A stretch of DNA of 64,000 nt, taken from an uncultured Alphaproteobacteria bacterium. GTDB taxonomy: Bacteria > Pseudomonadota > Alphaproteobacteria > RF32 > CAG-239. The position numbers were made by a program, and so were the translations under genes. Positions 22,253 to 64,000 of the stretch are shown in pieces (within the stretch, counting starts at the first letter, position 1; each line of letters begins with the position of its first letter). Under the pieces are notes generated by a model, which worked only from the letters and a program-made list of their open reading frames with translations, did no database searches and was not told where the DNA came from. Location of the stretch: contig CALXUQ010000001.1 in assembly GCA_944391725.1 (NCBI GenBank), forward strand, positions 17,345 to 81,344, written 5' to 3'.

Positions 22253-22308
22253 ACTCAACATAAAAAAGAGGCCGACAAGCGACCTCATTTTATGGCGTAC
22301 CCGGAGGG
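22253..22308. repeat. Direct repeat copy 1 (56 nt): last 16 nt of tRNA-Arg plus 40 nt of its downstream flank
   Basis: ACTCAACATAAAAAAGAGGCCGACAAGCGACCTCATTTTATGGCGTACCCGGAGGG is identical to 22427-22482. Confidence 0.9.
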
Positions 22309-22426: not shown

Positions 22427-22482
22427 ACTCAACATAAAAAAGAGGCCGACAAGCGACCTCATTTTATGGCGTACCCGGAGGG
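22427..22482. repeat. Direct repeat copy 2 (56 nt), overlapping the 3' end of the intact tRNA-Arg
   Basis: Identical to 22253-22308, with a 174-nt offset. Confidence 0.9.
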
Positions 22483-22543
22483 ATTCGAACCCACGACCCT
22501 TGGCGTCGGAGGCCAATACTCTATCCAACTGAGCTACGGGTAC
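22467..22543 (-). tRNA. tRNA-Arg (anticodon CCG)
   Basis: Reverse complement GTACCCGTAGCTCAGTTGGATAGAGTATTGGCCTCCGACGCCAAGGGTCGTGGGTTCGAATCCCTCCGGGTACGCCA folds as a cloverleaf. 7-bp acceptor, D arm GCTC/GAGT, anticodon stem TTGGC/GCCAA with loop CTCCGAC, T loop TTCGAAT, encoded CCA. Confidence 0.9.
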
Positions 22544-41631: not shown

Positions 41632-41902
41632 TATGTAGATTTTAAATCCTCCGTAAAATCGCTCCAATAAACCCTAGACGAGCACTAAACTCCGGCACTC
41701 CTTAAAGTTCGGATAGTGGAATTAGTAGAGTAGTTTTTAGGGCGAGAAAAGCTTGAGCGTATATAGAAATACGTGCAGTCGATAGTTGGCGATTGGCAAG
41801 CACCTCGTGCGCAGACAGAGCCTTACGTGACGAGCGAGCTTGCGAGATCAACTTTTCGAGACCCGCTAAAACTGCTCTAATAACCCAAAATACGAACTTT
41901 TA
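41632..41902 (+). repeat. Hairpin-unit array C: 5'-truncated type-2 unit (about 41632-41700) plus a complete type-3 unit (41701-41902)
   Basis: The unit starts CTTAAAGTTCGGAT and ends CTCTAATAACCCAAAATACGAACTTTTA. It closely matches 63227-63429, including an identical ~85-nt internal segment. Confidence 0.85.
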
Positions 41903-47259: not shown

Positions 47260-48030
47260 ATGCTAACAAATGCTGAAAATATCTTAATCACCGGAGCAAG
47301 CAGTGGAATTGGGCGAGCTCTGGCGATATATTATGCTCAAAACGGAGCAAAAAATTTGTTTATCTGTGGCCGCAATTTTGAACGCCTTTCTGCCGTTCAG
47401 AACGAATGTACCACATATGGCGCATCAGTTTATCCGTGCATTTTAGATGTTACCGATAGACAAGCCGTCAAAGAATGGATATTTAACTGTGAGCAGGTTG
47501 CACCACTAAACTTAGTCATTGCCAATGCCGGTGTAGCCACTCTGCAAGAAACCCCGGAGCACATCTACAACACTTTTGAGACCAACATTTTTGGGGTTGT
47601 CAATACGGTATTACCGAGCATTGAAGTATATCGGCAAAGAGATAATAAGGCAGATAAGCGCAAAGCCATTGCCATCATCAGTTCGATAGCGGGTTATCAT
47701 GGTATGCCGAGTTGTCCTTCTTATAGTGCCTCTAAAGCCTGCGTTAAAGCTTGGGGCGAAGGCTTAAGAGGAGATTTGAAAGGAGATAAAATCAAAGTTA
47801 GCGTAGTGTGCCCCGGCTTTGTCCGCTCCGGCATTACGGATAAAAATACTTGCCCCATGCCATTTTTCTTAGAAAGTGATAAGGCCGCCGCAATCATTGC
47901 TCAGCGCATAGATAAGAATGTCGGGTTGATAGCATTCCCCTGGCCTACCCGATTTTTTGCATGGTTTGGTTCCATTTTACCCAACCGAATTAGCCAGTTT
48001 GTATACGACCGCCTTCCACATAAAGTTTAG
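47260..48030 (+). CDS. Short-chain dehydrogenase/reductase (SDR)
   Basis: TGASSGIGRA cofactor motif and YSASK active site. Confidence 0.85.
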   Translation: MLTNAENILITGASSGIGRALAIYYAQNGAKNLFICGRNFERLSAVQNECTTYGASVYPCILDVTDRQAVKEWIFNCEQVAPLNLVIANAGVATLQETPEHIYNTFETNIFGVVNTVLPSIEVYRQRDNKADKRKAIAIISSIAGYHGMPSCPSYSASKACVKAWGEGLRGDLKGDKIKVSVVCPGFVRSGITDKNTCPMPFFLESDKAAAIIAQRIDKNVGLIAFPWPTRFFAWFGSILPNRISQFVYDRLPHKV

Positions 48031-48046
48031 ATAATAAGTCCTTAAT

Positions 48047-48076
48047 TAAAACTCCGCTTGGTGCGGAGTTTTTTTG
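48047..48076 (+). terminator. Rho-independent terminator of the SDR gene
   Basis: AACTCCGC-ttggt-GCGGAGTT followed by TTTTTT. Confidence 0.85.
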
Positions 48077-48092
48077 TACCTCAAAAATCCGC

Positions 48093-48120
48093 TTGCAAAT
48101 TTGATAAGATAGGATAAGCT
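48093..48120 (+). promoter_or_regulatory. Predicted promoter of composite module A
   Basis: TTGCAA, 16-nt spacer, TAAGCT, 6 nt before the start of inter-copy conservation (48127). The same hexamers and spacing occur at 62445-62472. Confidence 0.5.
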
Positions 48121-48126
48121 AAAACT

Positions 48127-48296
48127 GCACTCGGGTGAGCCGGGTGCGGAGTGTCGAAACTCCTTATACAGAAAGAAAGCTCCTTGAATGGGGAGCGACC
48201 GGTATAAGTATGTCTTGCGCATAACGAAGAAGGTCGACTGTTTCTGTATACAGTTTCGAACTCCCCGCCTTAGGAAAGCTAGGGCGGTTTCTTTTT
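48127..48296 (+). ncRNA. Conserved structured leader/ncRNA with intrinsic terminator, copy A (unclassified)
   Basis: About 95 percent identical to 62480-62646 outside one helix, which shows compensatory replacement. Ends in CCGCCTTAG-gaaag-CTAGGGCGG plus TTTCTTTTT. Lies 28 nt upstream of the HTH ORF. Confidence 0.65.
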
Positions 48297-48324
48297 AACT
48301 GGAAACCTAAAGGGAGTTTAGAAC

Positions 48325-48573
48325 ATGGGCCATCATCGCAACCGTATTAAAGCTTGGCAAGCCTGTCAAAAAGAGATTGGCGCACAAATCAAAAATATGC
48401 GCTTAGAGTTAGATTTACCTCCACAAATTGCCGCCGAACTTTTGCATATCGGACTAAACCAGCTTTTGTACCTTGAAAACGGCTATATTGGGAAAATGCA
48501 AATTACAGTTCTCCACGCCTTGGCTTATAAATATCACTATAAGTTAAAAATCAGTTTTGAGAAAAAAACATAA
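48325..48573 (+). CDS. XRE-family helix-turn-helix protein (82 aa), copy A
   Basis: AAGGGAG RBS. IGAQIKNMRLELDLPPQIAAELLHIGLNQLLYLENG fits the HTH_XRE pattern. Paralog at 62676..62924. Confidence 0.75.
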   Translation: MGHHRNRIKAWQACQKEIGAQIKNMRLELDLPPQIAAELLHIGLNQLLYLENGYIGKMQITVLHALAYKYHYKLKISFEKKT

Positions 48574-48724
48574 AGTCATCCCTCGTTTTTCAGAGAAAAA
48601 CGTCCAGGGATCTTCCGATTAAAGCGACTAACTCGAAGACCCCTTGACGACTACTAACGTAGTCGAGGGGTGACATTATTTATGTATTAGTCACCCGCTA
48701 GACGAGCTATAAACTCTGGCACTT
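48574..48724 (+). repeat. Conserved structured tail of module A
   Basis: Nearly identical to 62938-63088. Nested hairpins ATCCCT-CGTTTTTC-aga-GAAAAACG-tcc-AGGGAT, TCTTC/GAAGA, CCCCT..GACTAC-taac-GTAGTC..AGGGG and GGGTGAC/GTCACCC. Confidence 0.8.
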
Positions 48725-49066
48725 CTTAAAGGTCGGAGTTTGAGGTTATTAGAGTTCTTTTCAAGGCGAAGAAAATCCTAGCGTATATAGAAATACGTGG
48801 ATTTTCTGAGACCGCAGAAAAGAGCTCTAATAACCCAAAATACGGGCTTTAAAGTTCGGAGAATGAGTCGTATAGAGTAATTTCTAGGGGAGATGACAAT
48901 CCTAGCGTATAATAAGCTCAATCTTTGGCACAAAAAAGTTCGGAGTTTGAGGTTAGTAGAGTTCTTTTCAAGGCGAAGAAAATCCTAGCGTATATAGAAA
49001 TACGTGGATTTTCTGAGACCGCAGAAAAGAGCTCTAATAACCCAAAATACGGGCTTTAAAGTTCGG
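48725..49066 (+). repeat. Hairpin-unit array A: type-1 unit (48725-48853), truncated type-2 unit (48847-48935), type-1 unit (48935-49066)
   Basis: Units share the 5' end CTTAAAG(G/T)TCGGAG, the apex TAGCGTATATAGAAATACGTGG and the 3' end GCTCTAATAACCCAAAATACGGGCTTTAAAG. The two type-1 units are nearly identical. Confidence 0.85.
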
Positions 49067-50921
49067 GGACAGAAGAATGAGTCCTCCTCTCTTCCGCTAC
49101 CGGAGCATCGTCGTTGCGCTCTAACTTCTCGCCTTTGATAACTTGCTTGATTTCATCACCGGTCAAGGTTTCATATTCAATCAAGGCTTCGGCCAAAAGT
49201 TCCCATTCTTTGCGCTTGTCTTGCAAAATCTGCTTGGCTTCATTATAACCCGACATCACCAAAGACTTGATTTCGGCATCCACCAAACGGGCAGTATCTT
49301 CACTCATATTTTTGTTTTGGGTAACCGACTTGCCTAAAAATACTTCACCCGAATTTTCGGCATACAGCACCGGACCGAGCAAATCGCTCATGCCCCATTC
49401 GGTCACCATAGAGCGCGCCAAGTTGGTTGCCGCCGCAATATCCGAAGAAGCTCCGCTGGTCACATCATCTGCCCCAAACTTGATTTCTTCGGCCACACGT
49501 CCACCCATCATAATTGCCAAGCGCGATTTCATTTTCTGCTTCGAATAAGAATATTGGTCTTTTTCGGGCAGTTGTTGCACCATACCCAAAGCCCGTCCCC
49601 GCGGGATAATCGTTGCTTTGTGAATGGGGTCGGTTTCTTTAACATATAGCGAGCAAATCGCATGTCCGGCCTCATGATAAGCAGTGAGTTGTTTTTCTTT
49701 CTCGTCCATCGCCATTGACTTGCGCTCTGAACCCATCATCACCTTATCTTTGGCTTCATCAAAATCCTTAGAAGTAACTTTGTGCTTGTTTTTGCGCGCC
49801 GCTAATAAGGCGGCCTCGTTCACCAAGTTGGCCAAATCTGCCCCCGAAAACCCCGGAGTACCCCGAGCAATTACCGACAAATTAACATCTTTGGCTAAAG
49901 GAACTTTTTTGACATGAACTTTCAAGATTTCTTCCCGACCTTTTTTATCGGGGTTAGAAACCACCACCTGACGGTCAAAACGCCCCGGACGCAGCAAAGC
50001 CGGATCCAAAACATCGGGACGGTTGGTTGCCGCAATCAAAATCACATTTTCATTGTCTTCAAAACCATCCATCTCCACCAACAATTGGTTTAAGGTCTGT
50101 TCGCGTTCATCATTACCGCCGCCGAGTCCGGCTCCACGGTGACGTCCCACCGCATCAATTTCATCAATAAACAACAGGCAAGGAGCATTTTTTTTGGCTT
50201 GAGCAAACATATCCCGCACTCGCGAGGCACCCACACCCACAAACATCTCCACAAAATCTGAACCCGAAATTGAAAAGAACGGCACATTTGCCTCACCGGC
50301 CACGGCTTTAGCAATTAGGGTTTTACCGGTTCCCGGAGGTCCAACCAGCAACACGCCTTTGGGGATTTTGCCGCCCAAACGCTGGAATTTTGCCGGTTCT
50401 TTCAAAAAGTCGATTACCTCTTCGAGTTCTTGTTTGGCCTCATCGGCACCGGCCACATCGTCAAACGTAACTTTTTTGGTATTTTCAATCAACCGCGCAC
50501 GTGATTTTCCAAAACTCATGGCTTTGTTGTTGCCCGAACTGGCCTGACGCATAAAGAAAATCCACACGCCGATTAGCAAAATCATCGGGAACCAAGAAAT
50601 CAGCACTCCCCAAAACGTATTAGCCGAAGTATCTTCCGGACGCGCCTCCACTTTGGCACCGCTATTTCGCAAGGTTTCAATCATGGTCGGGTCATATGGG
50701 GCATAAGTACTAAACTTGGTACCATCGGTTGCCGTACCCATAATATTTGCCCCCTCAATCATCACCTCGCTGATTTGCTTGTTTTCGGCTTTGGTCATAA
50801 AGTCCGAAAAAGCCATTGTCTGATAACCACGACTTTGCGGATTATTGCTAAACATATTCATAATTGCGGAGAGCAGCACAATTGCCACCAGCCAAATAAT
50901 GATACTTTTTCCTGATTTCAT
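49056..50921 (-). CDS. ftsH: ATP-dependent zinc metalloprotease FtsH
   Basis: 621 aa. GPPGTGKT Walker A. HEAGHA zinc motif. Two N-terminal TM segments. Confidence 0.97.
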
Positions 50922-61783: not shown

Positions 61784-62386
61784 ATGAAAAAAGAAAAAAT
61801 AGTTGATAAACCCGAATGTGAAGAAGACGAAGCCGCGGAAACTGAGCTTGAGCAAGAGCTTGCGGCCGAGGACGCCGCTGAGGGCGAAGCCGAAAACGAT
61901 GCGGAAGATTTAGAGTTTTTGAAAGCGGAAAATCAACGCCTAAAAGAAGACTTTTTAAGAGCTTATGCTGATGCCGAAAACATCAAAAAACGTTGTGCTC
62001 AAGAAATTGAGAAAAACAACAAATATGCCATTTCCTCTTTTGCCAAAAGTCTGTTAAGCGTTGCCGATAATCTGCACCGTGCGATTGATGCCCTCCCCGA
62101 GGACAAGAAACAAAACTGCCCCGAGGCCATGAGCTTGCTTAAAGGAGTTGAGCTCACCGAAGCAGAGTTGATGAAAGTGTTTGATAAATTCGGCATCAAA
62201 AAAATGGAAAGCCTCGGCACGGTTTTCAACCCCAACTACCATCAGGTCATTCAAGAGGTTGAGGACAAAGAAAAGCCGAACGGTACCATTATTTCTGAGC
62301 TCCAAACCGGTTATATGCTCAACGACCGCATTTTGCGTGAGGCCATGGTTGTGGTCACCAAAGGCGGACCGAGCGAACAGCATTAA
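61784..62386 (+). CDS. grpE: Nucleotide exchange factor GrpE
   Basis: Acidic N-terminus, coiled coil, and FNPNYHQVI / ELQTGYMLNDRILREAMV motifs. Confidence 0.95.
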   Translation: MKKEKIVDKPECEEDEAAETELEQELAAEDAAEGEAENDAEDLEFLKAENQRLKEDFLRAYADAENIKKRCAQEIEKNNKYAISSFAKSLLSVADNLHRAIDALPEDKKQNCPEAMSLLKGVELTEAELMKVFDKFGIKKMESLGTVFNPNYHQVIQEVEDKEKPNGTIISELQTGYMLNDRILREAMVVVTKGGPSEQH

Positions 62387-62409
62387 GCAATAAAAAGAAT
62401 TAATTTTTG

Positions 62410-62443
62410 CACTACTTACCGGAAAGGGTAAGTAGTGTTTTTT
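62410..62443 (+). terminator. Rho-independent terminator of grpE
   Basis: CACTACTTACC-ggaaag-GGTAAGTAGTG followed by TTTTTT. Confidence 0.85.
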
Positions 62444-62444
62444 G

Positions 62445-62472
62445 TTGCAATTTTTCAAAAATACTTTAAGTT
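62445..62472 (+). promoter_or_regulatory. Predicted promoter of composite module B
   Basis: TTGCAA, 16-nt spacer, TAAGTT, 7 nt before the conserved RNA start (62480). Positionally equivalent to 48093-48120. Confidence 0.5.
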
Positions 62473-62479
62473 AGGAGAT

Positions 62480-62646
62480 GCACTCGGGAGAGCCTGGTGC
62501 GGAGTATCGAAACTCCTCGTATGAAAGAATAGCTCCTTGAATGGGGAGCGACCGGAATAAGTGTGCCTTGCGCATAACGAAGAAGGTCGACTGACATACG
62601 CAGTTTCGAACTCCCCGCCTTAGGAAAGCTAGGGCGGTTTCTTTTT
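62480..62646 (+). ncRNA. Conserved structured leader/ncRNA with intrinsic terminator, copy B (unclassified)
   Basis: Same architecture as 48127-48296. The helix CGTATG (62518-62523) / CATACG (62595-62600) replaces TATACAGAAA/TTTCTGTATA of copy A. Identical terminator at 62615-62646. Confidence 0.65.
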
Positions 62647-62675
62647 AACTAGAAACCTAAAGGGAGTTTAGAGCT

Positions 62676-62924
62676 ATGGGACGTTATAGTAAACGAATTA
62701 AATCTTGGCAGGAATGCCGCAAAGAAATTGGCGAAAAGATTAAGGACATGCGATTAGAGTTGGATTTATCGCCCGAAACCGCCGCCGAAATTTTGCATAT
62801 TGGCACCAAACATTTATGTTGCTTAGAAAATGGCGACATCCGTAAAATGGAAATCTCTTATCTCCATTCTATAGCTTATAAATATAGCTATAAGTTAAAG
62901 ATAAGCTTTGAGAAAAAGAATTAG
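62676..62924 (+). CDS. XRE-family helix-turn-helix protein (82 aa), copy B
   Basis: AAGGGAG RBS. IGEKIKDMRLELDLSPETAAEILHIGTKHLCCLENG. 54 of 82 residues identical to copy A by hand count. Confidence 0.75.
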   Translation: MGRYSKRIKSWQECRKEIGEKIKDMRLELDLSPETAAEILHIGTKHLCCLENGDIRKMEISYLHSIAYKYSYKLKISFEKKN

Positions 62925-62937
62925 AAAAAACAAAAAA

Positions 62938-63088
62938 AGTCATCCCTCGTTTTTCAGAGAAAAACGTCCAGGGATCTTCCGATTAAAGCGACTAACTCGA
63001 AGACCCCTTGACGACTACTAATGTAGTCGAGGGGTGACATTATTTATATATTAGTCACCCGCTAGACGAGTTTTAAACTCTGGCACGG
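62938..63088 (+). repeat. Conserved structured tail of module B
   Basis: Differs from 48574-48724 at only a handful of positions. Confidence 0.8.
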
Positions 63089-63543
63089 CTTAAAGTTCGG
63101 AGAATGAGTCGTATAGAGTGATTTCTTTGGCGATGACAATCCTAGCGTATAAAGAAATACGTGGATTGGCATCTACCCCGTAAAATTGCTCTAATAAACC
63201 AAAATAAACTTTAACCTCAGGCACAGCTTAAAGTTCGGATAGTGGATTTAGTAGAGTAGTTTTTAGGGCGAGAAAAATTTTAGTGTAGATAAACCTACAT
63301 GCAGTCGATAGTTGGCGATTGGCAAGCACCTCGTGCGCAGACAGAGCCTTACGTGACGAGCGAGCTTGCGAGATCAACTTTTCGAGACCCGCTAAAACTG
63401 CTCTAATAAACCGCTAGACGAACTTTAAGGTAAATTGTGATATGTGAGTCGAATAGTAAGAAATTAGGAATTTTGCGACTGAGTGTATAAAGAAATACAC
63501 GATTGGAGCAAAATATCCGACATTTCTGTACTAGTCGACCACA
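63089..63543 (+). repeat. Hairpin-unit array B: type-2 unit (63089-63213), type-3 unit (63227-63429), degenerate type-2-like unit (about 63424-63543)
   Basis: Same conserved termini and apex as arrays A and C. The type-3 unit has 11-nt terminal inverted repeats, CTTAAAGTTCG ... CGAACTTTAAG. Confidence 0.85.
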
Positions 63544-63553
63544 GAGCACAATT

Positions 63554-64000
63554 TTATATCATGGCCATACCACCATTAATATTAATAGTCTGTCCGGTGA
63601 TATATTGAGCTTCATCAGATGCTAAGAAAGCAACCACATTGGCAATGTCTTGAGCTTCACCAAGTTTGCCTTCCGGAATTTTAGCCAACAAAGCAGCTTT
63701 CACATCTTCTGGCAAAACATCGGTCATCGGAGTACGAATGAAACCCGGAGCAATCGAGTTAACCGTAATTCCGCGAGAACCAACTTCTTGAGCCAAACAT
63801 TTGTTCATGGCAATCATACCGGCTTTTGAAGCAGAATAGTTAGCTTGTCCGGCATTTCCGGTAACACCAACCACCGAAGCAATACCGATAATACGACCAT
63901 AGCGGCGTTTCATCATACCGCGAACGGCAGCTTTAGCCAATTTGAAACCAGCCGAAAGGTTAACATCGAGCACCAACTGCCAGTCTTCATCACTCATCCG
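63554..64000 (-). CDS. fabG: 3-oxoacyl-[acyl-carrier-protein] reductase FabG, N-terminal part beyond window edge
   Basis: YSASKAG active site. C-terminal TGQTININGGMAMI. The ORF stays open to the window end. Confidence 0.85.
   Translation of the reverse strand, partial: RMSDEDWQLVLDVNLSAGFKLAKAAVRGMMKRRYGRIIGIASVVGVTGNAGQANYSASKAGMIAMNKCLAQEVGSRGITVNSIAPGFIRTPMTDVLPEDVKAALLAKIPEGKLGEAQDIANVVAFLASDEAQYITGQTININGGMAMI

Follow-up and report, generated by a model that had tools for sequence, protein, structure and literature searches.

The 64,000-nucleotide (nt) stretch of DNA from an uncultured alphaproteobacterium analyzed here (contig CALXUQ010000001.1; hereafter called the window) contains two copies of a cassette whose constant core is a promoter, a leader RNA of ~170 nt with an intrinsic terminator, a ribosome-binding site (RBS), and a gene for an XRE-type helix-turn-helix (HTH) protein of 80–86 amino acids (aa). 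The leader is a previously undescribed structured RNA, and on balance we favor the view that it is a riboswitch-like attenuator gating expression of the HTH gene.

Two Cassettes in the Window

The cassettes lie in two blocks that were first delimited at 48093–49066 (block A) and 62445–63543 (block B). Reading of the sequence at 47700–49400 and 62100–64000 and pairwise alignment revealed an identical order of parts in both blocks, all on the plus strand: a putative promoter, the conserved RNA, a terminator with a stem of 9 base pairs (bp) and a U-run, the RBS AAGGGAG, an open reading frame (ORF) for 82 aa, a hairpin-rich tail of ~150 nt, and long hairpin units. In block A, the features lie at the coordinates given in the initial annotation. 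In the window, a 24-mer of the leader and a 37-mer of the tail have exactly two occurrences each, with none expected by chance, and a covariance model of the leader matches the window only at 48126–48327 (218 bits) and 62479–62678 (205 bits). The non-coding parts of the two blocks are 88–99% identical and the ORFs 72% on the nucleotide and 66% on the amino acid level.

The putative promoter of block A (48093–48120) consists of TTGCAA (48093–48098), a 16-nt spacer, and TAAGCT (48115–48120), and that of block B (62445–62472) of TTGCAA, 16 nt, and TAAGTT. A simple sigma-70 scan did not call the former; the sites are assigned as promoters because all copies keep TTGCA(A/T) at a constant distance before the start of the RNA. 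Leader A (48126–48296) is followed by its expression platform (48297–48324), which contains the GAAACC arm (48302–48307) of a GGUUUC/GAAACC hairpin and the RBS (48310–48316), and then by the HTH gene (48325–48573). In block B, the leader with its terminator and RBS region extends from 62479 to 62675 and has the same fold, and the HTH gene occupies 62676–62924.

Structure of the Leader RNA

The leader folds into a 5′ hairpin P1, a long composite stem formed by a long-range helix together with P3, a junction closed by this stem that bears P3a and a P3b/P3c arm, and a terminator maintained by compensatory changes. In leader A, P1 spans 48127–48147, and P2 (48148–48163) can pair GGAGU with ACUCC around the loop UCGAA (48154–48158). 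The P3 arms (48165–48174 and 48241–48250) enclose P3a (48179–48196) and the P3b/P3c domain (48197–48235). Farther downstream, UUCGA (48255–48259) pairs with the P2 loop and is followed by a second ACUCC (48260–48264) next to the terminator. The latter was called by a terminator scan and comprises a 9-bp stem with a GAAAG loop (48265–48287) and a U-run (48288–48296; TTTCTTTTT). Unpaired AUAAG and CGAA(G/U)AA in the P3b/P3c arm are invariant, as are many unpaired nucleotides of the leader.

Covariation was counted in 35 distinct full-length leaders from ~15 genomic sites, with pairing partners slid by 1–3 columns as a control. Standard pairs made up 96.3% of the cells in the proposed structure versus 35–46% in the slid controls, changes on both sides occurred in 22 of the 48 proposed pairs versus 3–6, and 206 cells versus 8–26 had changes on both sides. 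The alignment was fitted to the covariance model, which favors the structure, but the pseudoknot region and P1 contain no insertions or deletions, and an anchor-based count that is independent of the model alignment gave the same picture. The P3 helix reads UAUACAG/CUGUAUA in leader A and CGUAUG/CAUACG in leader B, differences that are compensatory, and takes at least six different complementary sequences across the leaders. P3b alternates between CGACC/GGUCG and CUGGG/CCCAG, and the terminator stem is preserved through at least four different sequences.

The P2 loop and the 5 nt just before the ACUCC adjoining the terminator occur in four fully complementary alleles (UCGAA:UUCGA, UCACA:UGUGA, UAGUA:UACUA, and UAGCA:UGCUA), with compensatory changes in three of the five pairs and 94.9% of cells paired. 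For the 13-bp long-range helix GGAGU-G-UCGAAACU / AGUUUCGA-ACUCC, 96.9% of cells are paired. The UCGAA:UUCGA pairs can be drawn either as an H-type pseudoknot on the P2 hairpin or as the center of this long-range helix, and covariation cannot choose between the two because the flanking pairs never vary.

A search with Rfam 15 at gathering thresholds found only a tRNA-Arg in the window, and a permissive scan (E ≤ 10) of 48000–49100 returned only noise over leader and tail. The family comparison proposed in the initial annotation thus left both without a match, and a literature search on the cassette found nothing relevant. Two other readings of the leader sequence were rejected. A tRNA-like T-arm formed by GUUUCGAAC is lost in the other three alleles, and a leader peptide, whose frame in copy A begins at the AUG of AAUGGGG, was ruled out by an ACG at this position in one leader (L023) and by an 8-nt indel in the central domain that shifts the frame. 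The terminator scan also flagged the P3a hairpin (48179–48196) on the minus strand, followed by TTTCTTTCTG; this call is probably a by-product of the leader's own hairpin.

Linkage of the Leader to the HTH Gene

A homolog search with the 82-aa protein yielded 53 clusters, all at least 67% identical, and the contigs of these homologs together with a genome scan and a metagenome scan provided 50 loci (L-numbers) for comparison. They originate from metagenome-assembled genomes (MAGs) of uncultured Alphaproteobacteria and from gut metagenomes, for example [quoted passage not shown] and several “human gut metagenome” assemblies. The first pattern used on the metagenomes, P1 plus P3a, had no matches because P1 differs in the other clade. 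In the loci examined, the HTH gene was found at ~15 different intergenic sites, whose flanks (upstream|downstream) include SDR (short-chain dehydrogenase/reductase)|ftsH, grpE|fabG, EF-hand|proS, atpH|priA, glmM|tolB, x|ssb, x|gyrB, lpxA|pheT, and x|rlmN-like. A dozen or more paralogous cassettes occur per genome.

The leader lies directly upstream of the HTH gene wherever the 5′ side is on the contig, with the exceptions of L021 and L022, and each full-length leader found has the RBS and ATG of an HTH gene ~28 nt further on. When the window and the 50 loci (323 kb) were searched with a covariance model built from 31 leaders, full-length matches were obtained only before HTH ORFs and never without one, which bears out the earlier proposal that structured RNA and HTH ORF form one conserved, co-oriented unit. 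In L021 (240–651) and L022 (34–182), where the HTH genes are divergently arranged, the terminator, the GGUUUC/GAAACC hairpin, and the RBS are retained behind a short unrelated 5′ part (GGGAG..GGGGCAUCCUCCCC) and the P1–P3 domain is absent. The platform is therefore a separable module.

The Leader as a Candidate Attenuator

Several features of the leader connect its fold to expression of the downstream gene. Only ~28 nt, with fixed spacing, are given from the U-run to the RBS, which leaves no room for a second promoter, and because of this short distance the ORF must be transcribed through the terminator. The RBS AAGGGAG is complementary to AACUCCC (48259–48265), and the GGUUUC/GAAACC hairpin is invariant in 31–35 leaders. 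Elements able to swap partners are the usual logic of a two-state expression platform, and the leader holds three CUCC and three GGAG elements of this kind. When folded without the platform (48126–48264), it forms the 13-bp long-range helix, and the ACUCC adjoining the terminator is thereby sequestered (−59.7 kcal/mol, z = −6.3). Extended through the ATG, the full leader has a minimum-energy fold in which the local P2 hairpin forms and AACUCCC is paired with the Shine-Dalgarno sequence GGGAGUU (−83.7 kcal/mol, z = −6.5).

The leader may accordingly be pictured as a two-state switch. In the first state, 5′-GGAGU-G-UCGAAACU would pair with AGUUUCGA-ACUCC-3′, or the H-type pseudoknot would form via UCGAA:UUCGA, so that ACUCC is tied up and AAGGGAG free. 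In the second state, the local GGAGU/ACUCC pairing of P2 would form, and the freed AACUCCC would pair with GGGAGUU and block translation. The terminator between the two elements would truncate most transcripts, and the HTH protein would be made only if an effector acting on the junction domain permits both read-through and an open RBS. As a first guess, this effector would be a small molecule or an ion. Among the three roles considered in the initial annotation, an attenuator-controlled regulator fits the data best.

The leader has the conserved, covarying domain of a riboswitch, as documented by the pair and cell counts given above, and it is located in cis in the 5′ untranslated region (UTR) with an intrinsic terminator and an occludable RBS 14 nt past it, although how this platform would work is inferred from the pairings. 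Like riboswitch and attenuator leaders, including those with H-type pseudoknots (SAM-II, preQ1-II) and those of the terminator type, it combines a covarying multi-helix fold with invariant junction nucleotides, places the 3′ strand of a long-range helix or pseudoknot beside an anti-Shine-Dalgarno sequence, and has the terminator before the RBS. Unlike them, it matches no Rfam model even at E = 10, has paralogous copies numbering a dozen or more per genome, precedes only the gene for a very small transcription factor, and lacks a clear antiterminator.

A number of observations weigh against the attenuator reading. No convincing antiterminator was found in the leader; the candidate pairing GGGGAG:CUCCCC shares no more than 2 bp with the terminator stem. 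The genes under riboswitch control normally serve metabolism or transport, and a dozen copies that all precede a tiny transcription factor are atypical: the sole gene downstream of the leader is that of the 80–86-aa HTH protein, and no coherent association with metabolic or transport genes was seen. GGAGU, the two copies of ACUCC, and the RBS never vary, so that covariation tests the pairings of neither alternative state, and in the long-range helix it is limited to the central three pairs. P3a lacks covariation, and one of its pairs is broken in 15 sequences. Mismatched helices are found in some leaders from metagenomes (L039, L049, L050, and L023–27), and these leaders may be assembly chimeras or decayed copies. 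Finally, the identity among paralogous leaders could stem in part from gene conversion.

HTH Protein and Possible Autogenous Control

The protein encoded downstream of the leader matches curated families only weakly. Copy B matches HTH_25 with E = 2.6e-4, at 21.2 bits compared to a cut-off of 24.6, and the HTH_31 and HTH_37 matches seen for copy A are also below the Pfam cut-offs. A profile search of the PDB retrieved XRE regulators and HigA2, with a match to 4ghj at E = 1.4e-4. An AlphaFold2 model calculated with a distant subfamily in the alignment reached a predicted local distance difference test score (pLDDT) of 89.5, whereas close homologs alone gave an unusable model (pLDDT 64). The former superposes on solved members of the XRE/Cro-C1 fold, namely HipB (4pu7, template modeling (TM) score 0.79), HigA2, C.BclI, C.AhdI, ClgR, and DdrO, with TM-scores of 0.64–0.79 normalized to the target and root-mean-square deviations of 1.5–2.6 Å. 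As modeled, the protein is a small Cro/XRE DNA-binding domain, and the product would be a dimeric regulator resembling HipB or a C-protein, whose recognition helix differs between paralogs.

In an exhaustive HMMER search, the family consisted essentially of one 50% cluster plus P0060, and the next matches were unrelated proteins with multiple HTH domains. The C-terminal motif LHALAYKYxYK is invariant across the subfamilies. Profiles of defense systems, phages, and NCBIfam yielded generic XRE similarity only. The antitoxins HipB and HigA and the controller C-proteins of restriction-modification (R-M) systems are typically dimeric autoregulators. The protein shares its fold and its size of ~80 aa with small XRE/Cro proteins such as HipB, HigA, C.BclI, and C.AhdI. 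Unlike in their systems, the cassette has no adjacent toxin or R-M genes and sequence matches remain below curated cut-offs, and these systems offer no counterpart to its structured RNA leader. In the window and the loci examined, no toxin gene adjoins the HTH gene, the cassette having no second ORF and the neighbors being housekeeping genes on the opposite strand, and no methylase or endonuclease genes were found nearby, so that the R-M operon context of a C-protein is missing.

The cassette was compared with that of a distant relative (L033) at the same grpE|fabG site. The flanking genes are 77% (grpE) and 85% (fabG) identical to those in the window on the nucleotide level and the leader 80–86%, as opposed to 53–55% for the HTH ORF, corresponding to 28–31% aa identity. 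Because of this difference between leader and ORF, the slowly evolving part of the cassette is the RNA and not the protein. The HTH proteins look mosaic, with variation concentrated in and after the recognition helix, and identical proteins stand behind different leader alleles (L002 versus L003, L008 versus L009). In a close relative (L015, 6993–7436), the leader at the orthologous grpE|fabG site is 96.5% identical to copy B of the window, but the ORF there resembles copy A (87% identity) more than copy B (74%), an indication of ORF exchange. Taken together, these comparisons point to exchange between paralogous cassettes. A paralog-specific operator in the promoter spacer was ruled out, as exchange of the ORF leaves the spacer of the site in place.

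These observations bear on autogenous control, in which the HTH protein or another conserved protein would bind the leader RNA or the promoter DNA and set termination and translation without a small-molecule ligand, much like ribosomal-protein leaders or the feedback by R-M controller C-proteins. Such control would agree with the structural matches, since HipB, HigA2, C.BclI, and C.AhdI are established as small autoregulating XRE proteins, with the invariant C-terminal motif, through which one conserved protein surface could face a conserved partner, and with a cassette that holds only the RNA and the HTH gene. However, neither the leader nor the promoter spacer tracks the protein, because the region of the recognition helix diverges while the leader remains conserved, identical proteins are combined with different leader variants, and the grpE site shows a replaced ORF downstream of an unaltered leader and promoter. 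In addition, the XRE fold is a DNA binder, for which binding of RNA would be unusual. We therefore consider autogenous control unlikely, and since the leader does not track the protein, a general cue such as a small molecule or an ion would seem to rank above it as the signal for the proposed attenuator.

The same leader could instead be a stand-alone small RNA that acts in trans or in an RNA–protein complex, with the HTH protein expressed by leaky read-through only. A strong terminator kept by compensatory changes would release a discrete RNA, and both the many invariant unpaired nucleotides and the many RNA copies per genome fit this picture. In all sequence searched, however, the RNA never occurs without the ORF, its variable loop is paired internally and hence not free for targets, and it is tied to the RBS by the conserved complementarity AACUCCC:GGGAGUU and a constant spacing of 28 nt. 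As L021 and L022 moreover retain terminator and RBS without the folded domain, a trans-acting role of this kind is quite improbable.

Downstream Repeats and Genomic Surroundings

In contrast to RNA and gene, the elements behind the ORF are not constant. Tail A (48574–48724; −51 kcal/mol, z = −4.8) is 97% identical to tail B (62938–63088) and contains an 11-bp inverted repeat (GTCATCCCTCG ... CGAGGGGTGAC) around nested hairpins, followed by GTGAC/GTCAC and a CTAGACGAG...GGCAC end. It was found behind the ORF, whole or in part, in seven of the loci examined and is absent from the others, and shorter variants are arranged in tandem in L043. The GTCATCCCTCG element has so far been seen only behind HTH cassettes, and in the window only behind the two described here. 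The tail is a dispensable palindromic composite resembling repetitive extragenic palindromic (REP) sequences, which might still serve as a 3′-UTR or terminator element.

The hairpin units that follow (block A, 48725–49069; block B, 63089–63545) are non-coding and multi-copy, have a length of 120–200 nt, carry inverted arms of 24–38 nt, and occur nested or in tandem between convergent genes. For block A, three long units had been proposed, of which the first (48725–48862) and the third (48933–49069) are indeed full copies with 98% identity and 38-nt inverted arms, whereas the middle one (48849–48935) is only a half unit; block B contains units at 63089–63226, 63227–63426, and 63427–63545. At least six copies are present in the window, all six GCTCTAATAA(A/C)CC ends being on the plus strand, and further copies were found in relatives. 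One solo locus (41640–41900, plus strand) at 41.6 kb is flanked by two convergent genes and has neither a leader RNA nor an HTH gene in its vicinity, and its copy at 41686–41900 is 91% identical to the block B unit at 63212–63426. The units are flanked by (C)TTTAAAG-like sequences, and no transposase was found in the window region examined. Owing to their 24–38-nt inverted arms, they are classified as repeats similar to miniature inverted-repeat transposable elements (MITEs) and REP sequences, with which they share short, non-coding, multi-copy units, terminal inverted repeats, and independence of a particular gene. They resemble in this respect REP sequences, bacterial interspersed mosaic elements (BIMEs), and MITE-type repeats such as the Rickettsia palindromic elements and the Neisseria Correia elements, but have no sequence relation to named families as far as comparison with phages, plasmids, and Rfam can tell.

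These repeats accumulate in the 3′ intergenic space and are not part of the cassette. The cassette upstream of proS leaves only 54 nt between ORF and proS, without room for tail or array, and at the priA site the ORF overlaps priA and neither is present. Elsewhere, changing mixtures of at least four repeat families stand downstream of the ORF, and tail and arrays are absent or replaced at several sites. The initial annotation had joined RNA, protein, and repeat array in a single functional unit of conserved order and had itself named independent occurrence of the parts as evidence to the contrary; for the repeats, as the solo unit also illustrates, this is what was observed.

That the entire block constitutes a mobile or selfish, non-autonomous element with its own repressor, the hairpin units being its ends or derivatives, is very improbable: the many copies at ~15 intergenic sites, their common position at the 3′ end of a convergent gene, the MITE/REP-like repeats clustered beside the cassette, the restriction of the GTCATCCCTCG element in the window, and the mosaic appearance of ORFs and leaders would suit this early suggestion, but it fails because the cassette has no defined ends (paralogs are alike only from the −35 box onward, and neither terminal repeats, inverted or direct, nor target duplications flank it), no mobility genes (no transposase, integrase, or reverse transcriptase in the window and the loci examined), and a stable site, grpE|fabG being occupied in all four lineages seen, among them three whose flanking genes are only 77–85% identical. 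Furthermore, phage, plasmid, and viral collections (BLAST, viral contigs) gave no matches, hairpin units occur without the cassette and the cassette without hairpin units, and no empty sites corresponding to other insertion positions are present in the window.

The cassette is convergent with the downstream gene at every site seen (~15 of 15), with the upstream gene in either orientation. This was observed in the window at 48325–49058 and 62676–63560 and in L002, L008, L017–L020, L031, L033, L036, L041, L043, L046, L047, and L050. The convergent gene is usually an essential one (ftsH, fabG, proS, priA, tolB, ssb, gyrB, or pheT), and the arrangement could result from selection against transcripts running into the starts of genes or from a local function as antisense or insulator. 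At L046 (134–400, minus strand), a different structured leader of ~230 nt is located upstream of a non-HTH ORF (MDLNDRLRALKKRQ...) and divergent from the HTH cassette. It is composed of a 5′ hairpin, a long helix, a terminator, and a GGGUUUUUG..CCCAAAAC hairpin, has a weak match to the leader covariance model (36.9 bits), and matches no Rfam family.

Block A had been placed between the SDR terminator and the ftsH stop codon, a description that does not hold at its 3′ border, where the last hairpin unit overlaps the stop and the last codons of ftsH, which ends at 49056. The terminal CTTTAAAGTTCGG of this unit (49056–49069) supplies the ftsH stop and last codons (..PEL*), and the repeat insertion has therefore reshaped the C-terminus of FtsH. 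Another repeat of ~70 nt (GGATAGCATCGCGGATACAGGGCAC...CCCGTCGCACGGGT) lies at or over the HTH stop codon, sometimes twice (L018, reverse, ~1190–1260; L019, 2759–2990; L020, 2759–2995; L022, 438–510), and accompanies 86-aa protein variants ending in ..KK(L/I)VQRA. Elsewhere in the window, an exact 56-nt direct repeat (22253–22308 and 22427–22482, 174 nt apart) includes the 3′ end of the tRNA-Arg (CCG; 22467–22543, minus strand) and sequence downstream of it; it looks like an att-type duplication or an integration scar.

Implications

If the attenuator model holds, the leader would define a class of structured, cis-acting regulatory RNAs that is new and confined to one clade of uncultured alphaproteobacteria, known mostly from gut metagenomes. 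Its fold is unusually clear by covariation, including the pseudoknot or long-range helix. The leader would also be an orphan riboswitch candidate for ligand hunting. Its wiring is odd, as many identical sensors each precede a different paralog of a tiny repressor, and the cassettes offer a case of concerted evolution and exchange between regulatory modules. They are also a warning that a composite of RNA, gene, and repeat array may be a real unit fused with unrelated REP/MITE clutter.

A more tentative and rather doubtful extension would regard the leader as a new class of riboswitch, or as sensing some other global cue, with copies connected in parallel to at least a dozen mini-repressor genes that diversify fast and recombine. 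To our knowledge, a layout in which one leader class fans out to many mini-repressors has not been described for riboswitches. If this were true, one signal would fan out through XRE regulators with different DNA specificities, each encoded at the 3′ end of an essential convergent gene.

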